A DNA stretch of 64,000 nucleotides from Gammaproteobacteria bacterium (GTDB lineage: Bacteria; Pseudomonadota; Gammaproteobacteria; Pseudomonadales; Azotimanducaceae). A program made the translations under genes and the position numbers. The stretch spans positions 84,363 through 148,362 of the forward strand of contig JAPPMF010000009.1 of NCBI GenBank assembly GCA_028819195.1, given 5' to 3'. Every line of letters begins with the position of its first letter. The stretch's first letter is position 1. Positions 24,794-49,162 of the stretch are shown here, in pieces. The notes below the pieces were generated by a model, which was not told the DNA's origin, ran no database searches, and saw only the letters and a program-made list of their open reading frames with translations.

Positions 24794-25657
<864 letters not shown>

Positions 25658-25692
25658 CTACAAATCTGTACAAATGGTGTTAGAACTTTTCA

Positions 25693-26007
25693 TTATTTGG
25701 GTGCATGACCCACTTTAAAGTTTTGTAGACCTAGACTGGCTAACACAAAGACGATATGAGCGCCGATTAAACTACAAGCGCATATTAAAGGATCTTGTTT
25801 CAGAAAGTAAATCACACAAAAAGCCCCCACCACATACAATAAAAATCGCACCATGTGTAACGCAAAAATTCGATTCATCGAGTCGACATTGCGTACCACC
25901 CAAGCAAACCACAGATTTGCAAGGAAAACAGCCCCACCACTCAAGAATATTGCTTTGGCAATCGCGCCGTTAGTGAAACTGAATCCTATACACACGCAAA
26001 ACACCAC
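25693..26007 (-). CDS. atpI: ATP synthase protein I
   Basis: Small hydrophobic ORF immediately upstream of atpB. Start (GTG) uncertain. Confidence 0.7.
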   Translation of the reverse strand: MVFCVCIGFSFTNGAIAKAIFLSGGAVFLANLWFAWVVRNVDSMNRIFALHMVRFLLYVVGAFCVIYFLKQDPLICACSLIGAHIVFVLASLGLQNFKVGHAPK

Positions 26008-26203
26008 GATTCCCTGAATCGCGACTGCCCATAAGTGTGCTTGATCTTTGTGTTTTGAGTTCAGAAATTTTTACTAAACTTGGTGTGATTCCCCAGCCGG
26101 GACACAATCCAGCCCAAAGGAATGGGGTTCAGGATTGCGCGTTCAAAAATTATACGAAACCTACATTTCAAATATCTGAGGTTTTAACGAGATGAAGCAC
26201 TTG

Positions 26204-27085
26204 CTACTTCTGCTGACTGCCACGTCGTACATGGTCAATAACCCCGTTGAGTTCATCTAAAGAATGAAATTTAACCACCAACTCTCCTTTCTGTTTACTC
26301 TTACCGCTAAGCCGAATAGTTGTTGGCGCCCCAAGCGTATCGGACAATTCTTCCTGCAACTTTAATACATTTGGATCAACTTGGCTTTCACTTTTTTTAC
26401 CCCCTTTTATACGCTTGAGAAGTTGTTCGGTTTGCCGTACAGAGAGACGGCGCTGTACCACACTTCTACAGACCTGCACTTGTTCGGGCTGAGGTCGTCC
26501 GACAAGTAACTTGGCATGTCCTAATTCGATTTCGCCACATCGTAGTGATTCAAGTACACGTGGCGATAACTCTCTCAACCGAATGAGATTTGTGATTGTC
26601 GACCGCGCTTTTCCTAGTAGTTCACCTATTTCCCCATGCGTTAAATGAAACTCTTCTTGCAATTGAACGTAGGCTTCTGATTCTTCAACGGCATTCAAGT
26701 CTTCACGTTGCAAATTTTCCACTAAACCTACTAGTACAACTTCCTTGTCGGTTAACGCTCGTACAACGACCGGAACATGATCTAGTTGCGCCAGACCCGC
26801 CGCGCGCCATCGACGTTCTCCTGCAACCAATTCAAAACCACCCGCTGGATTCGACCTTACAACCAGTGGCTGAATAAAACCATTTTGTTTGATTGATGCT
26901 GCTAATTCGGATAAACTAGCGTCGTCGAAAGTTTTTCGTGGTTGTCGAGGATTCGGTCGAATTTGCTCGATCGGTAATTGTTGGATATCGAGGTTTGTAT
27001 CCTGGGAATCATCATGTCTGTTCGCCGAGATCGAAGAATTCTTCAGTAACTCTCCTAAGCCCTTACCTAGAGTTTGTTTTACCAC
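26204..27085 (-). CDS. parB: Chromosome partitioning protein ParB
   Basis: QPRK..., LVAGERRWRAA (ParB box), HTH segment; lies downstream of parA. Confidence 0.95.
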   Translation of the reverse strand: MVKQTLGKGLGELLKNSSISANRHDDSQDTNLDIQQLPIEQIRPNPRQPRKTFDDASLSELAASIKQNGFIQPLVVRSNPAGGFELVAGERRWRAAGLAQLDHVPVVVRALTDKEVVLVGLVENLQREDLNAVEESEAYVQLQEEFHLTHGEIGELLGKARSTITNLIRLRELSPRVLESLRCGEIELGHAKLLVGRPQPEQVQVCRSVVQRRLSVRQTEQLLKRIKGGKKSESQVDPNVLKLQEELSDTLGAPTTIRLSGKSKQKGELVVKFHSLDELNGVIDHVRRGSQQK

Positions 27086-27094
27086 TTTAATCTC

Positions 27095-27865
27095 CTATGT
27101 GATTGAACGGCTCTGCCGAGTCAACAGCTCCTGACCCAACGCTATATGCGCTAGCGCCCCGCGTGAAAGCGGAGCATACTCCAAAATCGTGAGCCCATGA
27201 CTAGGCGCTTCCGCAATTCTTACATTACGTGGAATGACCGTTTCATATAACAAGTTTTCGAAGTGTTCGTGTAATTGATTCGAAACTTCCTTCGTCAAAC
27301 GGTTACGTTTATCGTACATCGTGCGCACGAGCCCTTCAATTTTGAGGCTCGGATTACCAGAACCTTGTATCGCAGTAATCGTTTCCATCAACGAACTAAT
27401 CCCCTCTAAGGAGAGATACTCACATTGCAGAGGAATAAGTACATGTGTGGCCGCCATTAACGCATTGATTGTCAAAATGTTTAAGCTTGGCGGACAATCA
27501 ATGATTGTGTAATCATGCTCCCGGGAATCGTTTAGCATTTCTCGTAGACGTATGGTCCGGTTTTCTTCACTTAACAGTTGTAGTTCCACTGCAGTTAAAT
27601 CTGTGTTAGAACAAACTATATCAAATCGCGGACTAAACGATTGCGTGATTGCCGAAAGTGTTTCATTTCCTTGAAACCAATCCCAAGTTGTAAGTGGTCG
27701 CTCGGGTAAGCGGCTTGATACATGCGCGGTGGAATTACCTTGTGGATCTAAATCTAACAGCAAAACCGACTTTTTTAATTGTGCTAACGCGGCTGCTAGG
27801 TTGACTGCAGTAGTAGTTTTGCCTACACCTCCTTTTTGATTAGATACGGCGATCACAAAGTTCAT
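27095..27865 (-). CDS. parA: Chromosome partitioning ATPase ParA/Soj
   Basis: Deviant Walker A in NQKGGVGKTTTAVNLAAAL; LLLDLDPQGN. Confidence 0.95.
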   Translation of the reverse strand: MNFVIAVSNQKGGVGKTTTAVNLAAALAQLKKSVLLLDLDPQGNSTAHVSSRLPERPLTTWDWFQGNETLSAITQSFSPRFDIVCSNTDLTAVELQLLSEENRTIRLREMLNDSREHDYTIIDCPPSLNILTINALMAATHVLIPLQCEYLSLEGISSLMETITAIQGSGNPSLKIEGLVRTMYDKRNRLTKEVSNQLHEHFENLLYETVIPRNVRIAEAPSHGLTILEYAPLSRGALAHIALGQELLTRQSRSIT

Positions 27866-41000: not shown

Positions 41001-42224
41001 TTAAATATGGGTAAACGGTACCGCTGCAACCGTCTTACTAAGTGGCAAGCACTCATTTCCAAGATGAATTACAAAACCTTGTTTGGCTAGATTACCAAAA
41101 TCCCGTTGGAAGTTCTCAATTCCTGTAGCCATCGTTCGTCTGGGAGTTGCGGACGCTTTCACTTCAATAGGAACTAAACCCGATCTGGAACGGACAACGA
41201 AGTCAATTTCAGTTCCGGCAACAGTTCGCCAAAAGAACACTTCTGGAACTTCACCACTATGGGTAATTGTTCGCATGATTTCTGCCAAGACGGCGGTTTC
41301 AAAGATTGCTCCACTTAACGGGCCGTCGCGGGCATGATGGAAGTCTCGCAATCCTACCAAATAACAAAGCGTTCCTACATCCGTAAAGTATATCTTTGGT
41401 GTCTTCACGAGACGTTTGCCAATGTTCGCGTAGTAAGGACGCAGAATTACGATTTGGTAACTTGCTTCGAGCACCGATAACCATACTTTGATGGTATTGA
41501 CAGCTAGCCCGAGGTCGCGAGCGAGACTAGTCAAATTCAGTAACTGCGATGAACGTGCCGCAAGCATGTGAAGAAAGTTCTGAAATTGCGATAGATCACC
41601 TACGTTTCGCAACATACGAACGTCTCGTTCTAGATAGGTTTGAACATAACTCGAATGCCAAAGTTGAATGTCACGTTCCGGTTGACTCACAAGTTCTGGA
41701 TAACCCCCGCGTAAAAAGTTTTCCCATAAGTTCGTAGGAGACGAATGTGTTCTCGTTGTATCACTCGCAACATTTTCCCAAACTAGGGGTAGCTGAGGAT
41801 AACCTTCTGTTTCACGATGCGAGAGAGGCAACAAGCGCAATATCGCAGCGCGACCTGCTAAAGACTCGGTAACATTTGCCGAGAGCAACAAGTTTTGTGA
41901 CCCCGAAAGTAGATACTGCCCCGTTCTTGTCCGTTCGGCGTCTATTTTTTCTTTGATGTATGGTAATAATTCAGGTACGTATTGGATTTCGTCCAAGATG
42001 ATTGGTGACGGGTAGGAGTCTAAGAAACCTCGCGGATCTGCTGTTGCGAAAGTTCGAATATCTGGAATCTCAAGCGACTGGTAGGTGTGCGTCTTTCCGA
42101 ATACCTGTTTCAGTAGGGTTGTTTTTCCTGATTGTCGTGGACCGGTTAGTACCACCGCGGGGAATTCACGTGCCGCCCGGTCGAGCACCGATTCCATCGA
42201 TCGAGTTGTATAAGAAACGCTCAC
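41001..42224 (-). CDS. AAA-family ATPase of the AAA_14 / DUF4143 type
   Basis: VVLTGPRQSGKTTLLKQVF Walker A, ILDEIQ Walker B, and a C-terminal region resembling the DUF4143 (restriction-endonuclease-like) module (...FWRT..G.EIDFVV...IEVK). Family names are from memory. Confidence 0.7.
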   Translation of the reverse strand: MSVSYTTRSMESVLDRAAREFPAVVLTGPRQSGKTTLLKQVFGKTHTYQSLEIPDIRTFATADPRGFLDSYPSPIILDEIQYVPELLPYIKEKIDAERTRTGQYLLSGSQNLLLSANVTESLAGRAAILRLLPLSHRETEGYPQLPLVWENVASDTTRTHSSPTNLWENFLRGGYPELVSQPERDIQLWHSSYVQTYLERDVRMLRNVGDLSQFQNFLHMLAARSSQLLNLTSLARDLGLAVNTIKVWLSVLEASYQIVILRPYYANIGKRLVKTPKIYFTDVGTLCYLVGLRDFHHARDGPLSGAIFETAVLAEIMRTITHSGEVPEVFFWRTVAGTEIDFVVRSRSGLVPIEVKASATPRRTMATGIENFQRDFGNLAKQGFVIHLGNECLPLSKTVAAVPFTHI

Positions 42225-42422
42225 AAGTGAATATTATGCATTTTAAATGCACAATTTAAATCAAATCAAGAGAAAATAGCAGAAGCCACTGAAGTTGGTA
42301 TAACATGAAAGAACGATCAACCTACAATAATCGTAATCCAAATTGTGACAGGTCATTGGTCTATGGATTCGAAAAGAAAGATTGCCTCCAAGATCATTCG
42401 TCTCGACGACAAAGCGGACAAA

Positions 42423-44150
42423 ATGGTTCGACGAATTCTTTTTTTGCTTGCGGTTGCCTTGATTTCGACAACATTCACTAGTTGCCAATGGTTGGGTTCT
42501 AAGACGGTATTCACTTACTTCACGATTTCTGCTGAAGCAGTGCGACTAGCTCCAGACTCACCAAAACATCCTATATTCGTCGAGATTACCTACGAAACTA
42601 CCAATGAAATCGATGAAACAGAGACTATTCAATTGGCAGCAGGGTCGCTGGGCGATGGCGACATAGAGTTTAAAGAACAAGTAACTGAATCCATTGAAGT
42701 TCTAATAAAGGTAAGCGAGCTTCCCGAAAGGTATAGCGCTTCAACCAAAGCTATTCTGAGACCGAATTTCACGATCGATTTGCAATATAGGAGGTCAAAC
42801 TATGACACCGAAATCGGCGAATTGATATTTGAAAGGGTACACGATCTTTCTCTAGAACCTAATCGTAGATTTTCATTCACCGGAGATCGTCGTAGTTTGA
42901 GTGAAGGATTCTTCGATATGAGTGTTGTCAGAGCTTATTCAGATCTAGACACCTCAGACGAAAACGACACAGTACAACACTTTGGTCCGTTATTTTTCGA
43001 AGATGGTGAGTTTTTGATTGTCGGAGATGTAGATGAGCCTACATTGTTTACTATCGAAATTTCAAGACCATTTGAGTTTCTAGCCCAAAAACACTTTGCG
43101 ATCTTTGAACCTGGCGTCAATTACCGTCTTGTTCCGTTGGGTAATAGCGGAGAAATTGCGATCGAGGCTGATCGAGAAAGTACCCATACTAAACTGATTT
43201 CAAGTTGGCAAAGGGATCCAGCATATATAGAAATAGTTGAACAGTTGATCCAAGCCCAAAAAGACGAATCTAATAGCAATGGCAAGCGGCACGCGCAGCA
43301 TTTGGAAGAATTTGTAAAGAACTATAAAGTTGCGGCTGAATGTGAACATATTGTTGTTACAAAAACACAGCTGTCGCCTCTTGTTACAGACTATATTCCT
43401 TCCTCGTTATTGATGCGAACAGAACTAGTCAGGTTGCGGTCTGCCGCGCTTCGCAAACTTATGGACGAAACCACAAACTTTAAATTAAGTGAGTTGATTT
43501 CTACATTGGGTTCGAAGATGCTTGATGAAGATTCAGCTTGGGGTTTGAATGTGCGTTACGAAAGAGAAACATTTTTTCTGCAGTGGTGGTTGAATCGAGG
43601 GTTAGAAACCAGCAACGGCGACGTACAAAAGCGATTAGATCGTAATCGAGTCTTACAAGAAGAAATCTGGTCCACACAATTGTCTGAACAAAAATCACAG
43701 CAATCGCTACCAGGCCAAATTGCACCCGCGTTCCTTCTACCTACAAGTAGTGGCGAAAAAGTCGACTTGAATGATCTACTTCAGGATAACAAATTCGTGT
43801 TCATTGATTTCTGGGCGTCTTGGTGTGGCCCGTGCATCGATAGTTTTCCTGAACTAAAAAAAGTGTACTCAACCTTCCACGAACGAGGATTGGAGATTGT
43901 TAGCATCTCTATTGATAGCGACCACGAAGACTGGGAACAAGGTTTGGTCGACACTGATCTTCCATGGGTAAACCTTGTTGCTGCGGCTGAAGATGGAGAG
44001 CTGTGGGGATGGACTGCGCCAACGGCACTTGCTTACGGGTTAAACTTCATACCCCAAGGTTTTTTAGTTGATGAACATGGTTGTATCGTACAAAAAAACA
44101 TGTCTACCAACAAACTCGAATATTTTCTTGCCCGTAGTCTACAGGATTGA
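42423..44150 (+). CDS. Lipoprotein paralogue (no. 7) of the multidomain TlpA/ResA-like thioredoxin family, isolated from the main array
   Basis: MVRRILFLLAVALISTTFTSC (lipobox-like TSC). Repeats ...DIEFKEQVTESIEVLIKV and RFSFTGDR...FLIVGDVDEPTLFTIEI. THTKLISSW. ECEHI at 43338-43352. IDFWASWCGPC. The ORF-track start 42345 adds 26 aa with no signal-peptide character. Confidence 0.82.
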   Translation: MVRRILFLLAVALISTTFTSCQWLGSKTVFTYFTISAEAVRLAPDSPKHPIFVEITYETTNEIDETETIQLAAGSLGDGDIEFKEQVTESIEVLIKVSELPERYSASTKAILRPNFTIDLQYRRSNYDTEIGELIFERVHDLSLEPNRRFSFTGDRRSLSEGFFDMSVVRAYSDLDTSDENDTVQHFGPLFFEDGEFLIVGDVDEPTLFTIEISRPFEFLAQKHFAIFEPGVNYRLVPLGNSGEIAIEADRESTHTKLISSWQRDPAYIEIVEQLIQAQKDESNSNGKRHAQHLEEFVKNYKVAAECEHIVVTKTQLSPLVTDYIPSSLLMRTELVRLRSAALRKLMDETTNFKLSELISTLGSKMLDEDSAWGLNVRYERETFFLQWWLNRGLETSNGDVQKRLDRNRVLQEEIWSTQLSEQKSQQSLPGQIAPAFLLPTSSGEKVDLNDLLQDNKFVFIDFWASWCGPCIDSFPELKKVYSTFHERGLEIVSISIDSDHEDWEQGLVDTDLPWVNLVAAAEDGELWGWTAPTALAYGLNFIPQGFLVDEHGCIVQKNMSTNKLEYFLARSLQD

Positions 44151-44335: not shown

Positions 44336-46198
44336 CTATTGGAAAGGAAGTTGATTCGATGTGTTTTTTAGAAATACTGGTTGCATGGTCTCGTCCCCTT
44401 CAACTAACCTTTTAAACTCGTTGATGTCTGTTTTGAATTCGTGATGGTTCACGTAGAGGTATCGCCAACAACTGAAGGTTGGTCGATACCCAACTAAAAA
44501 CTGAAGAGATTTTTCTGCGTATTCCAAAGCTTTAGTTCCATCTCCCATTGCCCAGTACGCTAAACCAATACACTGCAGATAGTTGGCGCTGTCATGTCTA
44601 TCCTCATCCTCTTGATTTGCTTCATGTATTTTGATGACGTTTTCAAAATCTAACTTAGTGTGGTTCCGGCTTTCTCCCCACGCAGCCATCGCCAGATTGA
44701 ATGTGGTTGTAATTTCCAATGTTGCCTGCGCTAAATCGTCAAACAACCTTTTTGCAAGTTGAAACTTACCTATCGAGATGTAAAGTAATCCTAGCTCTTG
44801 CTGTAAATGTTTATCTGATATTGAAATTATTTCGTCAGATATTAGTGGTTGTACCAACAGATTTGCAAGGCTACGTATTGCTCCACGTTCAGAAAAGTAC
44901 AGTTCAGTAACGAGTTGGACTCTTTGTTCTATATTTAAAGAAATTACTGACTTACATTTAAGTACCTGAATATATGTTTCGGATTGAATGAGTCTCAAAG
45001 CACCAACAAGCAATCGAAAGGATGGGATTTCTAAATCGAGTACCTGAAAAGCAACCCCACTAGCTTTTTCTTTATCTCCAAGTTCCGACAGTGCCCGCGC
45101 CTGGCCTAAGTACACATTCGGATTGTTAGTACTCATGTCTATTGCGTTCTGGTATAGTGAGATCGATCGTTCTAACTCCCGTTCACGAAAATAAAATCTA
45201 CCTAGCTGATACAGGATCTCTGGATCTTTACTGTGAGCCGCTTCAATCTTATCTAAGGAATTCTTGTTGTTCGGCATCCAACTCTCTTTTTCCCACGGTG
45301 AATTGTGCTGCATATCTAATCTGAGCTTGTTCAGAAAATTTAGTGCGCCATCACGATCTTCTAAATTTACATTGACGACTTGATTCACGATATTGCAGTA
45401 CTCTTTAGCTAATCGACTGTTCGGTCGACTCAGGGTAAAAATTGCTTGGTTGAGTAACGAGAGACTATCGTAACGGTGTACGATTAGCGGTTCTTTATCG
45501 AATGCAAGTTGGAGCTTAAACTTCAAAATCTCCTCTTCTAGGATTTGGTGTTCATCGTCCAAGTCAGGAACGTTGGACATAACAAAGTGCAATTGAATCT
45601 CTTTATTTCTTGGGGCGTATTTTTCAGATCCTATGTCTTTGACTAATTTCCGAAGTCCTCGAAGATTTTGTTCGTTTGGAAAATAGAAAATCGTTACTGC
45701 ATCGGGAAGTTGCCGAGTGCAAATTCCTCCAACATCGGTGTGACCAGTTCGTGAGTCAATTAGGACATAATCTGGATTGAGTTTGTCCTTCCACTGTTGT
45801 TTAAGATCCTCCATCAGAAGAAAACCATCTCGGTTAGCGTAAAGGTCCCACCAGTCGATACTTTGAGACAAATTAGCAAAACTCTGTTCTTTCCCACCGG
45901 CAGCCATCAACCAGATATTTCCAGCATCTTTGGCAGGAAAGTCTGGCCTACATTCGACCAAATACTTTTCAAACTCATCCGAAACACCGGTAGTAAGGTA
46001 TGAGTTGACAAAGTCCACAAGACCGAGAGTAGGTTTTTCCAGATTTAATGAGTTAAACGTGTCGAGACCCGGAGCTTCAAGGTCAAAGTCTATTAGAAGT
46101 ACACGACGGCCTCTACGTGCTAGTTCGACTCCAGAGTTAACTAACGCCATAGATCGCCCAACTCCCCCTTTAAAAGAATAAAAAGTAGTCACGTACAT
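44336..46198 (-). CDS. ParA/MinD-like ATPase with a variant KGGVGR Walker A, fused to a ~330-aa TPR-like helical-repeat domain
   Basis: MYVTTFYSFKGGVGRSMALVNSGVELARRGRRVLLIDFDLEAPGL, with Walker B in DYVLIDSRTG. The C-terminal half is helical with TPR-like units (ILYQLGRFYFRERELERSISLYQNAID..., ANYLQCIGLAYWAMGDGTKALEYAEKSLQ). The start overlaps the upstream stop (TGATG). Confidence 0.8.
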   Translation of the reverse strand: MYVTTFYSFKGGVGRSMALVNSGVELARRGRRVLLIDFDLEAPGLDTFNSLNLEKPTLGLVDFVNSYLTTGVSDEFEKYLVECRPDFPAKDAGNIWLMAAGGKEQSFANLSQSIDWWDLYANRDGFLLMEDLKQQWKDKLNPDYVLIDSRTGHTDVGGICTRQLPDAVTIFYFPNEQNLRGLRKLVKDIGSEKYAPRNKEIQLHFVMSNVPDLDDEHQILEEEILKFKLQLAFDKEPLIVHRYDSLSLLNQAIFTLSRPNSRLAKEYCNIVNQVVNVNLEDRDGALNFLNKLRLDMQHNSPWEKESWMPNNKNSLDKIEAAHSKDPEILYQLGRFYFRERELERSISLYQNAIDMSTNNPNVYLGQARALSELGDKEKASGVAFQVLDLEIPSFRLLVGALRLIQSETYIQVLKCKSVISLNIEQRVQLVTELYFSERGAIRSLANLLVQPLISDEIISISDKHLQQELGLLYISIGKFQLAKRLFDDLAQATLEITTTFNLAMAAWGESRNHTKLDFENVIKIHEANQEDEDRHDSANYLQCIGLAYWAMGDGTKALEYAEKSLQFLVGYRPTFSCWRYLYVNHHEFKTDINEFKRLVEGDETMQPVFLKNTSNQLPFQ

Positions 46199-46755
46199 CA
46201 GCTAGCTATTCTCAGTTCAAACTCTGTGTGGGTCGATCTGGACTCGCGACTTTGTTGAATATGTCTGAAAGGAATTATGTTTTCGTCTGAATCCAGATCA
46301 CGCAGTTCAAGCAGATGAACGATGCACTGTAATTGCTTAAAAATTTCTGGATTTCTCAGAAGCCGTAGATACCGATCGTTAGCAATATTTTGTATGTTGA
46401 GACTTTTCTCCCACCGGCTGAGCGACGCTTCACCAATACCGGTTAACTGGGCAAATGCGTTTCGTTTCATTTGGTACTTCTCGCGTATTTGTCTGATTTC
46501 GTCGGGGTTGAGTACGCCAAAATGTTTACACAATGCGTTGTGTTCAATTTCCTCTGCTTCCCAATTTTTGTACTCAATCTCACATTGTGGGCAGTTATAT
46601 ACAGGGGTTTTGACCCATATTTTCGCCGTAGATTTTCCAGTACCGTACTCCATGTCATAACCATGAATCGTACGAATAACTCGATCGGTTCCGCATAAAG
46701 GACATGTTTCCTTTGGAGCGGTATCCGTGCTAGGGGTTATTGCATGTTTGTTCAT
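46198..46755 (-). CDS. MqsA-like Zn-ribbon + XRE-type HTH protein (antitoxin-type regulator) with a C-terminal extension
   Basis: CPLCG...(32 aa)...CPQCE zinc-ribbon spacing, then DEIRQIREKYQMKRNAFAQLTGIGEASLSRWEKSLNIQNIANDRYLRLLRNPEIFKQL. This aligns by eye to E. coli MqsA (CPVC...CVHCE; VRKKLSLTQKEAAEIFGGGVNAFSRYEKG...LLRVLDKHPELLNEI). Confidence 0.8.
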   Translation of the reverse strand: MNKHAITPSTDTAPKETCPLCGTDRVIRTIHGYDMEYGTGKSTAKIWVKTPVYNCPQCEIEYKNWEAEEIEHNALCKHFGVLNPDEIRQIREKYQMKRNAFAQLTGIGEASLSRWEKSLNIQNIANDRYLRLLRNPEIFKQLQCIVHLLELRDLDSDENIIPFRHIQQSRESRSTHTEFELRIAS

Positions 46756-46783
46756 TTTTATGTATTGCTCCGTAAATCATAGT

Positions 46784-47130
46784 TCAATCATCGTAATGGA
46801 AGCTTCGACCGTAGATCTTTCCGGTACCAAGCTCTATTTTTACATATATGACGGGGTCATTAGTTTTTAAATCAATTTTCATAGCATAGCCAGTTCTACC
46901 AGGTGGATTTCGCAATTTGACTGGTTTTAATTCAAACCTGCCTCAATGTGGTTTACGATCAAATCCCACGCAGTAGAATCTGTGAATTGGGTATCTAAAA
47001 TCCCATTTGGATTGCGAACCTTATTTGGCTTCCATTTATTCCGACGTTTCCGTGTCCACTCGGTTGTTCGAGTACGTCGACTTTTAGCCAACGAAATTAT
47101 TTGTTTGAGTATCGAAGAATCGACGCTCAC
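46784..47130 (-). pseudogene. MqsR-like toxin gene apparently split by a -1 frameshift (or two small ORFs)
   Basis: ORF 47130..46927 reads MSVDSSILKQIISLAKSRRTRTTEW...AWDLIVNHIEAGLN*. A second frame, open from 46942 to the stop at 46784, reads GRFELKPVKLRNPPGRTGYAMKIDLKTNDPVIYVKIELGTGKIYGRSFHYDD*. Joined, they resemble E. coli MqsR end to end (TRLSQVKKLVNAGQVRTTRS...; ...GQVYLKITVIHDVLIVSFKEK). The toxin-first gene order matches mqsRA. Confidence 0.5.
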
Positions 47131-47367
47131 TACAAACTTCCAATAGCATTAGAAAAGCCACCGCAATCTACAATCATATGAGTATTTTACACATCACCAA
47201 ACAACAATCTAAAAGTTAACAGCAGTCATATAAGTGTTTTTAGATTTATACTCGAAAAGGTGTTTGACTTGGTTTTATATGTAAGAGATTTCACCGTTCG
47301 TGTACATGAGTTTTTGTTCCCTGCTATATAATAATACACAGAAGATTTGAAGTAGTATTCTTGAAAT

Positions 47368-48225
47368 GTGAGGAGGAAAGGATTGACACAGCAATTCGGC
47401 GGTAAATGGACAAAAGAAAAACTCGCGATTTTGGATGGCTATTTGAATGCGTACACCTCTGTATTCAAGAATAAAAAGTTCAAAATCGTTTATATCGACG
47501 CTTTTGCAGGAACTGGAAAGATTCAAACTACAACAGATCTTGGCATGCAGCAATTTTTGCGAGGCTCAGCAAGTATTGCACTAGAGGTTTCAGATAGACC
47601 TTTTGATACACTTGTATTCATTGAGCAGGACTCAAATAAATGCAAGGTTTTGGAAAACAAGTGTGCAGAACCTAAGTACGCGGAACGCAATACAAGAATA
47701 ATCAACGACGATGCAAATACTTATTTGACTAATCTCAAGGTTGACTGGAGCACATGGCGAGGTGTATTGTTCTTAGATCCGTTTGCAACTGAAGTGAACT
47801 GGCATACTATCGAAACAATCGCGAATTTCGAAGCGTTGGATACATGGATATTGTTTCCAGTTTCGGCGGTATCGAGAATGCTGCCTGTCCAATGTTTACC
47901 AGAAAAAATTTCTGAGAAACTTTCAACAAGTTTGGATACTATCTATGGAGACGACAGTTGGAAGAACCTTTATGGCAAACCTCCAACTCGAGATTTGTTT
48001 GACTTTGATCAATCAGCGCGCGTTAGACTGCGCGGAGTTGAAGGGTTGCTTTCCATTTATAAAGCTAAATTGAAACGTGAATTCGGTAAACGATTTTTAG
48101 CAAGATCTAAAACTTTGAAGAATTCAAAGAACTCAGCAATGTTTGAGTTGATCTTCTGCGTTGGTAACTCTGACGGTATAGCAGTAGCTAAACGAATCGC
48201 GGATCATCTTCTCAAAGATTTGTAA
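47368..48225 (+). CDS. tcmP: Three-Cys-motif partner protein (TcmP-like)
   Basis: ...FGGKWTKEKLAILDGYLNAYTSVFKNKKFKIVYIDAFAGTG... matches my recollection of the TcmP family N-terminus. It lies immediately upstream of a Gp37/Gp68 three-Cys protein. Start is GTG 47368, or TTG 47383 six nt after AGGAGG. Confidence 0.65.
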   Translation: MRRKGLTQQFGGKWTKEKLAILDGYLNAYTSVFKNKKFKIVYIDAFAGTGKIQTTTDLGMQQFLRGSASIALEVSDRPFDTLVFIEQDSNKCKVLENKCAEPKYAERNTRIINDDANTYLTNLKVDWSTWRGVLFLDPFATEVNWHTIETIANFEALDTWILFPVSAVSRMLPVQCLPEKISEKLSTSLDTIYGDDSWKNLYGKPPTRDLFDFDQSARVRLRGVEGLLSIYKAKLKREFGKRFLARSKTLKNSKNSAMFELIFCVGNSDGIAVAKRIADHLLKDL

Positions 48226-48259
48226 TGGTTAATGTGTCATATGTTAACAAGGATGTAAG

Positions 48260-49162
48260 ATGGGATACTTATCTAAGATCGAGTGGACGGATCATACTTT
48301 TAATCCATGGTGGGGTTGTACTAAGATTTCACCTGCGTGTGACTTTTGTTACGCAGAATCATTTTCTCGTAGATTAGGGATGGATATCTGGAGTTCACGT
48401 AACAAACGGCGATTCCTGAGTGAATCTAATTGGAAACAACCGCTCAAATGGAATGCCAAAGCCGCCGCAAAAGGTGAGCGAGCACGAGTGTTCTGTGCTT
48501 CAATGAGCGATGTTTTCGAATATAAGAAGGGACTCACAGCACTCAGAGACAGACTTTGGTCTTTAATCGACAGTACACCCTCTTTGATTTGGTTACTGCT
48601 CACTAAGCGACCTCACTTAGTAAACCGTATGGTGCCCTGGAGTGAAGATTGGCCGAGTAATGTGTGGATAGGAACCACAGTAGAAGATCAGAAATGGTTA
48701 CAGAAACGGCTACCACACGTGGAAAAGATTCCAACAACCAACCGGTTTTTGTCGTGTGAACCACTATTGGGGAGCATTGACTTGGGTTCTTGGTTAGCGC
48801 GTGACATCATCCGATGGGTGATCGCTGGCGGTGAAAGTGGTAGTTGCGCGCGACCAAGCGATCCGCAATGGTTTTACTCTCTTCGTGATCAATGTCAACA
48901 GTATCAAATTCCGTTTCACTTCAAGCAATGGGGAAATTGGGCTCCGATAAATTCAGTCAAAGAAGGTGTACCGCGAGCTACTCTGAACGAAAATTTTTCT
49001 ACGTCAATGGGAAGATTTCCCAAAAAAATAGCAGGAAGAAGTTTGGAAGGGCGATATTGGAATCAATTACCAAAGGAATTATTCATAGGGGGAAGGGGCA
49101 ATGGGACAGCGCCATTCCTAAACAAAAAATATGGTAAACACTGCAGAAATAAACCTATATAG
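48260..49162 (+). CDS. Phage Gp37/Gp68 family (DUF5131) three-Cys-motif protein
   Basis: SKIEWTDHTFNPWWGCTKISPACDFCYA (C-x6-C-x2-C at 48317-48349), ...VFCASMSDVF..., LLLTKRP, FLSCEPLLG, WVIAGGESG, FHFKQWG. Confidence 0.8.
   Translation: MGYLSKIEWTDHTFNPWWGCTKISPACDFCYAESFSRRLGMDIWSSRNKRRFLSESNWKQPLKWNAKAAAKGERARVFCASMSDVFEYKKGLTALRDRLWSLIDSTPSLIWLLLTKRPHLVNRMVPWSEDWPSNVWIGTTVEDQKWLQKRLPHVEKIPTTNRFLSCEPLLGSIDLGSWLARDIIRWVIAGGESGSCARPSDPQWFYSLRDQCQQYQIPFHFKQWGNWAPINSVKEGVPRATLNENFSTSMGRFPKKIAGRSLEGRYWNQLPKELFIGGRGNGTAPFLNKKYGKHCRNKPI

Follow-up and report, generated by a model that had tools for sequence, protein, structure and literature searches.

The window analysed here is a stretch of 64,000 nucleotides from contig JAPPMF010000009.1 of the gammaproteobacterial assembly GCA_028819195.1 (Azotimanducaceae; positions 84,363 to 148,362 of the forward strand). 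Between its positions 44336 and 47130 the minus strand carries three consecutive genes, here termed R, A, and T, which encode in that order a small protein, an MqsA-type protein, and a large P-loop protein whose second half is built of tetratricopeptide repeat (TPR)-like helices. The R-A-T combination is a widespread three-gene operon that is apparently undescribed. The genes, their domains, and the operator-like elements in front of them are as follows.

47225..47234, minus strand: distal degenerate copy of the operator-like palindrome, CTTATATGAC, with three mismatches, 52 nt upstream of the proximal copy
47173..47182, minus strand: proximal operator-like palindrome, CTCATATGAT, starting 52 nt upstream of the R start codon at 47130
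46784..47130, minus strand: R, small-protein gene (putative MqsR-like/BECR-fold toxin), a pseudogene here as judged from open reading frame (ORF) lists, the sequence, and alignments
46198..46755, minus strand: A, intact gene for an MqsA-type antitoxin/repressor of 185 residues, from TIGR03830 and PF15731 matches and a family-profile match to 3gn5
46582..46704, minus strand: zinc ribbon of A, residues 18–58 (C18, C21, C55, and C58, in CPLC and CPQC), with the four cysteines invariant in 40 sequences
46330..46506, minus strand: XRE-type helix-turn-helix (HTH) of A, residues ~84–142, from HTH_3, HTH_26, HigA-2, and MqsA HTH matches
46201..46329, minus strand: C-terminal tail of A, residues 143–185, extending ~43 residues past the end of E. 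coli MqsA
44336..46198, minus strand: T, intact gene for a 620-residue protein with a KGGVGR-variant ParA/MinD-fold P-loop and a TPR-like half, from NF047398, AlphaFold2 (AF2), and Foldseek
45359..46198, minus strand: nucleotide-binding domain of T (ParA/Soj/MinD fold), residues 1–280, from invariant columns and structural matches
44399..45355, minus strand: TPR-like solenoid of T, residues ~282–600, from Pfam TPR matches, DSSP, and Foldseek

The sequence-only reading of this DNA had described the middle gene as encoding an MqsA-like protein with CPLC and CPQC motifs, an XRE HTH, and an extra C-terminal tail, set 28 nt behind the gene before it, and this description held in each part: the ATG of A at 46755 follows the R stop codon at 46784 after a gap of 28 nt, and the coding sequence runs on through both cysteine pairs and the HTH into the tail. 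Judged by profile matches, A is MqsA-type over both of its domains. It passes the cut-offs of TIGR03830 (62.0 versus 61.8) and PF15731 (33.3 versus 30), narrowly in both cases, and a profile built from 40 A proteins matches E. coli MqsA (3gn5) across both domains with E=5.5e-5 (query 16–140 to chain residues 2–129), the HTH domains of HigA-2 also being matched. The zinc ribbon is presumed to be the toxin-binding domain, and the HTH bears the conserved motif TGLGEA.L.RWE.G..IQN.ANDRYLRLL. In an alignment with E. coli MqsA and 80 homologues, the tail is variable except for F163 and the terminal F179-x-L181-R; its mean p-distance, 0.77, is the highest of all parts of the module.

The stop codon of A and the start codon of T share one base at position 46198 (TGA/ATG, GCTGATGTAC), which is the TGATG overlap seen earlier. 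The protein product of T, which starts MYVTTFYSFKGGVGRSMALVN, has the TPR-like second half that had been proposed for it: several TPR-family Pfam matches fall between residues 305 and 570, DSSP assigns helices from 282 to 599, and the AF2 model (predicted local distance difference test, pLDDT, 86.2; predicted TM-score, pTM, 0.81) has a Rossmann-like domain to ~280, followed by an all-helical solenoid to ~600. In Foldseek searches the first part resembles Soj, MinD, FlhG, ParA, and NifH (TM-score by target, TMt, 0.6–0.77), and the second half resembles consensus TPR (CTPR), LapB, and OGT TPR structures. The solenoid is presumed to be a sensor or partner-binding domain, and its mean p-distance is 0.68 versus 0.39 for the ATPase domain. 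Homologues of T number more than 5,500, the best 120 of which are all full-length at 43–57% identity.

An NCBI family of KGGVGR proteins, named in the sequence-only reading, does exist (NCBIfam NF047398, ‘KGGVGR-motif variant AAA ATPase’, to which no function is assigned), and residues 2–189 of T match it with 166.6 bits against a cut-off of 90. The same reading had taken KGGVGRS to mean that the ‘signature’ lysine was replaced; a lysine is indeed replaced, but it is the canonical P-loop lysine of GK[ST] (Arg15 in the window), and K10, the first lysine and the signature residue of deviant Walker A motifs (KGGxxK[ST]), is retained. The P-loop K10-GGVG-R15-S16 (46151..46171) is joined by the Walker A' residues D37/D39 and by the Walker B/switch II segment D148-S-R-T-G152; K10, D37/D39, and D148-S-R-T-G152 are invariant or nearly so. 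KGGVGR[ST] is found in 74/74 homologous loci, with Arg always in place of the canonical P-loop lysine. In P-loop NTPases such a residue pattern suggests nucleotide binding with impaired hydrolysis, i.e. a switch. Because its canonical Walker-A lysine is always Arg, T probably acts as a switch that binds nucleotide but hydrolyses it weakly or not at all.

The first gene, R, had been read as a single MqsR-like ORF, which is not what the window contains: there are two ORFs in different frames, 47130..46927 and 46942..46784. The N-terminal frame begins with a GTG and continues for 67 codons, ending in NHIEAGLN before a TAA at 46929..46927, and the C-terminal part, GRFELKPVKLRNPPGRTGYAMKIDLKTNDPVIYVKIELGTGKIYGRSFHYDD (GRFELKPVKL...GRSFHYDD, then the stop), is open only in the other frame. 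Alignment with the near-identical, syntenic sister genome L081 (GCA_009838145.1, contig VXSD01000090.1) places a single-nucleotide gap near 46940 in the window R. Joined in silico, the two fragments give 116 residues that are 66% identical over the full length to P0121, an intact metagenomic protein of 128 residues. Because this merged translation aligns end to end with intact proteins of 115–130 residues, found at the same position in dozens of genomes, the window R is taken to be frameshifted. Clustering indicates that R is a small-protein family of its own without annotation, comprising 837 clusters when grouped at 90% identity and 497 representatives at the 50% level; the merged R alone retrieved one protein in a word-index homologue search, and an alignment query was needed for more.

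Programmed frameshifting in R was considered and set aside. The junction lacks an X XXY YYZ slippery heptamer, and the lesions of relatives differ and sit elsewhere, which makes programmed frameshifting unlikely and leaves gene decay as the simplest reading of the window frameshift. Three distinct R lesions occur in the lineage of the window: the frameshift in the window itself, a CGA>TGA change in L081 that falls on the invariant Arg of the GRSFH motif, and an internal stop in a close relative, L057. Since R is a pseudogene here, the local module cannot work as a full toxin-antitoxin system.

The sequence-only reading had allowed that the ATPase might be linked to unrelated genes in most genomes, or might be a partition ParA, and neither was found. 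One genome per species was scanned with T, giving 80 loci, and 88 loci with a full-length ATPase-TPR protein were examined in all, nearly all of them in metagenome-assembled genomes (MAGs). A lies directly upstream of T in 80/80 of the genome loci, with R before A in 79/80 (phmmer); in the full set A is directly upstream of T in 88/88 loci and R precedes A in nearly all. The gap from A to T is mostly between −1 and +20 nt. Clustering of all flanking ORFs from the 80 loci returned no fourth conserved gene and no ParB, only R and A recurring. Because the gene order recurs across 88 loci, these comparisons indicate that the triad is a conserved unit, far beyond a chance neighborhood. In the loci examined, R and A never adjoin those relatives that share only the ATPase domain of T.

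The triad is carried on plasmids of Rhizobium phaseoli, R. gallicum, Massilia forsythiae, and Polymorphobacter, and on four IMG/VR contigs, and its hosts belong to the Gammaproteobacteria, Alphaproteobacteria, Binatia, Acidobacteriota, Spirochaetia, Latescibacterota, Gemmatimonadota, and Planctomycetota. In RefSeq, T of the plasmid triads is named ‘ParA family protein’ or ‘AAA family ATPase’, and the A homologues are named ‘type II TA system antitoxin MqsA family protein’, except in Polymorphobacter; the plasmid frames of R and A were checked directly in R. phaseoli and Massilia only. Intact triads in cultured hosts include those of R. phaseoli N831 (pRphaN831c, NZ_CP013566.1, about 24881–27630), M. 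forsythiae (NZ_CP051687.1), and Colwellia marinimaniae MTCD1 (NZ_BDQM01000003.1). The earlier view that the combination lacks a previous description stands: none was found in the literature searched, in PADLOC v2, or in papers on conflict systems and domain-centric defence.

Sponge-associated MAG lineages (Poriferihabitaceae, Binatia, Latescibacterota, and Azotimanducaceae; bins SB06xx, CAR1, COS3, and RHO1) account for a large share of the loci, and the ATPases of these loci are only 40–47% identical across phyla. This suggests horizontal spread within the habitat, or sampling bias.

Disruption of the three genes across the 88 loci is distributed as follows.

R, ~350 nt: disrupted in 10/88 loci (four nonsense, five frameshifts, one degenerate copy)
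A, ~560 nt: disrupted in 0/88 loci (none)
T, ~1850 nt: disrupted in 2/88 loci (one stop, one truncation)

Were lesions distributed according to gene length, the binomial probability that at least 9/11 of them lie in R would be 3.7e-7; this test counted nine R lesions among eleven, the degenerate copy (L054) having been recognised only in the output of the same analysis. Per base, lesions in R are ~20-fold commoner than those in T. Such a bias would be expected if the product of R does harm whenever it is not neutralised, and if the neutraliser cannot be the first of the two to disappear. Four of the R lesions are nonsense substitutions, and the L054 copy is degenerate, with stops in its N-terminal half; lesions of these kinds are less exposed to explanation by assembly error. 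Decay of the whole module is seen at two loci, with an R frameshift and an in-frame ATPase stop at L051 (5604–5606 and 4240–4245), and an R stop together with an ATPase truncated after about residue 290 at L057 (from about 2945). In another Azotimanducaceae MAG (L021, 3627–5001), a 1.37-kb insertion separates the MqsA-like and ATPase genes, and R carries a stop codon.

Comparison across loci identified a 10-bp palindrome, ATCATATGAT. In 76/87 loci it occurs, with at most one mismatch, in the 200 nt preceding R; the remaining 958 kb of locus sequence contains 13 matches. The palindrome contains a −10-like TATGAT, and a TTG-type −35 element lies 16–19 nt upstream of it in 33/76 loci versus 3/76 in an offset control. 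At least two copies, with up to two mismatches, are present in 66/87 loci, and their spacings cluster at 40–42, 51–53, 63, and 72–74 nt, intervals that differ by roughly one helical turn; in L057, a close relative, two perfect palindromes lie 51 nt apart. Where a dimeric HTH protein represses its own operon, as in mqsRA, the classical sign is a set of phased palindromes overlapping the promoter, and we infer that A is the protein binding them here. The operator emerged only from the cross-locus comparison; a generic promoter/terminator scan and an inverted-repeat search of the window returned counts no higher than in shuffles, and Rfam and tRNA scans detected nothing in the region. The inverted repeat found in the window by these searches, AATCTAAAA/TTTTAGATT, does not coincide with the conserved palindrome.

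Comparison of the window with the otherwise almost identical L081 reveals marked divergence in the module. TrkA, TrkH, and GyrB have synonymous divergence (dS) of 0.03–0.05 and amino acid identity of 99.4–99.9%, and the corresponding dS values for the module are 0.85 for R (67% amino acid identity), 0.46 for A (82%), and 0.17 for T (94%). The nonsynonymous-to-synonymous ratio (omega) is 0.16–0.26 over R, A, and T, and 0.16–0.19 for A and T, which, on these values, remain intact and under purifying selection in the window. A scan in 150-nt windows gave the following nucleotide identities to L081.

47193–46595: R and the A zinc ribbon, ~70%
46594–46445: A HTH, 97%
46444–45845: A tail and N-terminal part of T, 88–91%
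45844–44945: rest of the ATPase domain and first TPR part, mosaic, 87–99%
Below 44945: remainder of T and downstream flank, 99–100%

Because the ~70% identity covers both R and the A zinc ribbon between near-identical flanks, R and this ribbon, the counterpart of the toxin-binding domain of MqsA, have been exchanged, or have diverged, together as a cassette, and the succession of ~70%, 97%, and ~90% blocks implies, on this alignment, more than one recombination event within 2 kb of the module. All parts of the module co-diverge family-wide, and the pair formed by R and the zinc ribbon has the top residual distance correlation (0.46, controlled for the ATPase domain), in an analysis that was made without phylogeny correction and is only suggestive. 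The A tail and the TPR half are the fastest-evolving segments, and the ATPase domain and the HTH the most conserved.

The profile searches that bear out the MqsA assignment of the sequence-only reading do not extend to its MqsR assignment, R having no Pfam, NCBIfam, or PDB-profile match to MqsR. PF15723 and the NCBIfam MqsR model gave zero matches at E≤1 for the window fragments, the merged R, or 40 homologues; the R family profile searched against PDB sequences gave only two chance-level matches (E=1.2) and no MqsR chain at E≤10; and a Foldseek search of BFVD viral structures with the R model gave no match. By these searches, R falls outside the MqsR family as its models define it. For P0121, AF2 predicts (pLDDT 86.4) a helix at 3–15, a helix at 51–63, and four strands between 69 and 113. 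Foldseek of this model against the PDB returned nothing at E≤1e-3; among the matches listed, MqsR (3hi2_B) has the top TM-score and the joint-highest probability (probability 0.87, TM-score by query, TMq, 0.47, TMt 0.59, root-mean-square deviation 4.2, E-value 0.21).

For comparison at the level of alignments, a bona fide MqsR alignment was built from 13 plasmid-borne genes. Aligned to it with hhalign, the R family gave a score of 23.0 (P=0.0033, probability 9.8%), a score attained by none of 200 column shuffles and by 3 of 200 block shuffles, the reversed template scoring 13.4; there was no match when the R family was aligned to the single E. coli MqsR sequence. The catalytic residues of MqsR are K56, Q68, Y81, and K96. 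A relaxed hhalign alignment spans both proteins and places Y97-x-K99 of R (Y-V-K; numbering of the merged window sequence) on Y81-x-K83 of MqsR, and S111-F112-H113 on S94-F95-K96. The best available reading of the model and the alignment is that R is a distant MqsR/RelE-like fold in the same register; the earlier MqsR-like label fails on standard profiles and survives just as a distant fold resemblance.

In the window, the triad lies between a TcmP/DUF5131 pair and a DUF4143 ATPase, with the following neighbors.

47368–49162, plus strand: TcmP (three-Cys-motif partner, TIGR04474) and DUF5131, matching the PADLOC candidate PDC-M41A/B (1e-71 and 1e-58), divergent to the triad
42345–44150, plus strand: 601-residue protein with a C-terminal ResA/TlpA-like thioredoxin domain (residues ~450–590)
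41001–42224, minus strand: AAA_14/DUF4143 ATPase of 407 residues, matching the PADLOC candidate PDC-S01 (1.5e-116), 100% conserved in L081

The N-terminal 450 residues of the 601-residue protein have no family match. L081 lacks the segment corresponding to 47194–48943 of the window, in whose place it has 522 bp of different sequence, and of the DUF5131 gene it keeps only the last ~219 nt. The absence of TcmP/DUF5131 from this otherwise 97–100% identical genome indicates that the spot is variable between close relatives.

The ATPase domain of T recurs in other architectures, which, like the PADLOC-candidate neighbors, give context to a possible defence role. Residues 4–218 of T match positions 131–347 of the 438 positions of the PADLOC candidate PDC-M28B (5e-34), a match to the domain only that falls short of full-length M28B, and PDC-M28C is absent at this locus; a genuine M28B and M28C pair, found on viral contigs (L091, 1651–4408), looks different from the triad. 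The KGGVGR domain lies N-terminal to TIR on the Sinorhizobium chiapasense plasmid NZ_CP133151.1 (L094, 3397–6193), where a separate small TIR ORF precedes it, and N-terminal to a NACHT/NPHP3 module at L086 (4998–8288). On IMG/VR contigs (L087–L090) there is an overlapping three-gene set of a winged-HTH protein, a KGGVGR ATPase of 740–780 residues, and an unannotated protein of ~490 residues. A predicted-inactive MinD/ParA-like domain has been listed in ternary conflict systems, with no link to MqsA or MqsR (Kaur et al. 2020, PMC7159879), and NF047398 is its probable equivalent.

The R-A pair resembles MqsR/MqsA (E. coli ygiUT; 3HI2, 3GN5) in its toxin-then-antitoxin order with a short spacer, in an antitoxin composed of an N-terminal four-Cys zinc ribbon and a C-terminal XRE HTH, and in the palindromes of its own promoter. 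E. coli PmqsRA carries two palindromes, with the operator ACCT-N-AGGT, whereas the R-A-T element has the distinct decamer described above. As modelled, R shares with MqsR the succession of helix, helix, and four strands, with the aligned Y-x-K and S-F-basic motifs on the last two strands. In contrast to MqsR, R lies outside PF15723 and NCBIfam MqsR, has a conserved insert, RPTxWRPxxVxNP, and has GRSFH where MqsR has VSFKEK; A differs from MqsA in its extra tail of ~43 residues, and R-A-T differs from mqsRA in its obligatory third, translationally coupled gene.

A second point of comparison is provided by the toxin-antitoxin-chaperone (TAC) systems HigBAC and MqsRAC, with which R-A-T shares the order of toxin, antitoxin, and third component, and a C-terminal extension of the antitoxin. 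In TAC systems this extension (ChAD) is held by a SecB-like chaperone, and the toxin is set off when a phage protein competes for that chaperone; MqsRA-type pairs occur in TAC form and defend against phage (10.1101/2024.02.24.581848; PMC9519451; PMC11980606). The third component of R-A-T, in contrast, is unrelated to SecB, being a 620-residue protein with a ParA/MinD-fold KGGVGR P-loop and a TPR solenoid. Its N-terminal ~190 residues are shared with the NF047398/PDC-M28B relatives, where the domain is likewise N-terminal to TIR and NACHT, but those relatives are without the TPR half and are never linked to R and A. T resembles the ParA/Soj/MinD ATPases in fold (TMt 0.67–0.77 for Soj, MinD, and FlhG), and it retains K10, their signature lysine, as well as the aspartates of Walker A' and Walker B. 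It differs from them in the change of the P-loop lysine to Arg in every member, in the fused TPR domain, and in having no ParB, MinE, or MinC partner, its operon partner being a toxin-antitoxin-like pair.

We interpret the locus as one copy of a mobile, autoregulated, tripartite toxin-antitoxin-like operon, R-A-T, that is degenerate in the window, and give this reading a probability of about 0.55. The operon would be transcribed from a sigma-70-type promoter, which a dimer of the A HTH would repress by binding phased copies of ATCATATGAT overlapping the −10 box. R would be a growth-inhibiting effector of ~115 residues, most likely an endoribonuclease using the invariant Y-x-K and G-R-S-F-H motifs, and the N-terminal zinc ribbon of A would neutralise it; indirect support comes from the preferential inactivation of R, for toxicity, and from the joint divergence of R and the ribbon, for neutralisation. 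T would be a third, regulatory or sensor component that engages A, probably via its variable C-terminal tail, and its hold on the tail would be the analogue of the SecB-like chaperone holding ChAD. For this idea, akin to the sensor-ATPase control proposed in the sequence-only reading, the support is indirect: the tail ends in a conserved F-x-L-R motif, and the tail and the TPR half evolve fastest. A trigger bound by the TPR solenoid, e.g. a phage protein, or a change of nucleotide state may then free or destabilise A and unleash R, which would cleave RNA and stop growth. In the window, A and T may persist as an anti-addiction remnant, or with an R-independent role. A broader proposal, which we hold more tentatively and at somewhat short of even odds, is that R-A-T is an unrecognised, widespread tripartite toxin-antitoxin/abortive-infection class, in which a hydrolysis-impaired ParA/MinD-fold nucleotide switch with a rapidly evolving TPR sensor takes the place of the SecB-type chaperone and gates an MqsA-type antitoxin via its tail, releasing a new, highly diverged MqsR-like RNase; if true, T would be the first ParA-fold protein to act as the trigger-sensing third component of a toxin-antitoxin module.

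Several observations weigh against the tripartite reading. Both window fragments of R, the merged sequence, and P0121 were scanned and have no Pfam, NCBIfam, PADLOC, or PHROG match. The similarity between the modelled R fold and MqsR lies below conventional significance: 3hi2_B ranks 24th by E-value, behind many NTF2-like matches (themselves with TM-scores of ~0.3), the hhalign probability is just 9.8%, and R shows no identifiable counterparts of MqsR K56 and Q68. With respect to the cis-element, the window has no −35 of the kind described upstream of its palindrome, and its distal site is degenerate and, at three mismatches, not significant alone. The residual correlation of the A tail with the TPR domain (r 0.24, mirror-tree) is unremarkable. 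Flanks at most of the 80 loci are unrelated housekeeping genes, not defence islands, and some frameshifts in long-read MAGs, conceivably that of the window itself, could be assembly errors.

The strongest of the alternatives is that the operon is a regulatory or signalling module, in which A is a transcription factor set by T and R a harmless accessory (a co-repressor or adaptor). R cannot be assigned to any toxin family, conservation is highest in the HTH and the ATPase domain, the operator is strongly conserved, and A and T are intact and under purifying selection (omega 0.16–0.19) after the loss of R, all of which a regulatory module would accommodate. It fits poorly with the specificity of disruption for R, A never being disrupted, and with the behavior of a self-contained three-gene unit that moves among phyla, plasmids, and viral contigs, none of its target genes being conserved in the vicinity. 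The hyper-divergent cassette formed by R and the zinc ribbon, the MqsR-resembling fold, and the toxin-then-antitoxin order also speak for a toxin-antitoxin-like pair, and we regard a purely regulatory module as doubtful.

An effector role for T itself, through interference with cell division or chromosome segregation or through a TPR-bound target, with A and R as its regulators, seems to us unlikely. In its favor, the ‘effector’ domains listed for ternary conflict systems include MinD/ParA-like ones (PMC7159879), no other protein of the triad is as large or as well conserved as T, and genuine effectors such as TIR occur fused to this ATPase domain; in the TIR and NACHT fusions, however, the KGGVGR domain takes the regulatory N-terminal position, and the Walker-A K-to-R change favors a switch over a motor. 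A toxic T should, moreover, accumulate lesions, whereas its lesions are ~20-fold rarer per base than those of R. That T is an ordinary plasmid or island partition ParA beside an unrelated mqsRA-like pair, as its Soj/ParA fold, the RefSeq name ‘ParA family protein’ given to homologues, and the plasmid location of some copies might suggest, is effectively refuted by the lack of ParB, of a centromere-like repeat partner, or of any other conserved neighbor, by the chromosomal location of most copies, by the invariable Arg at the canonical lysine, by the 330-residue TPR domain that is always attached, by the obligate linkage to A in 88/88 loci with stop and start overlapping or nearly so, and by the Massilia plasmid, which has its own RepA region apart from the triad.

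Whatever the role of its product, R defines a new small-protein family (497 representative clusters) that comes with a precise operator in helically phased pairs, and the presence of the triad in cultured hosts (plasmids of Rhizobium phaseoli, R. gallicum, and Massilia forsythiae; Colwellia marinimaniae) brings it into organisms available in culture. The decay of the toxin with retention of the antitoxin and the ATPase, as in the window, is a natural experiment on the domestication or disarming of such a module. If the tripartite model is right, R-A-T would represent a new toxin-antitoxin/phage-defence logic, in which an NTP-binding ParA-like switch with a repeat-type sensor controls a zinc-ribbon antitoxin, and would provide the first functional context for NF047398, a family that also fronts TIR and NACHT modules.

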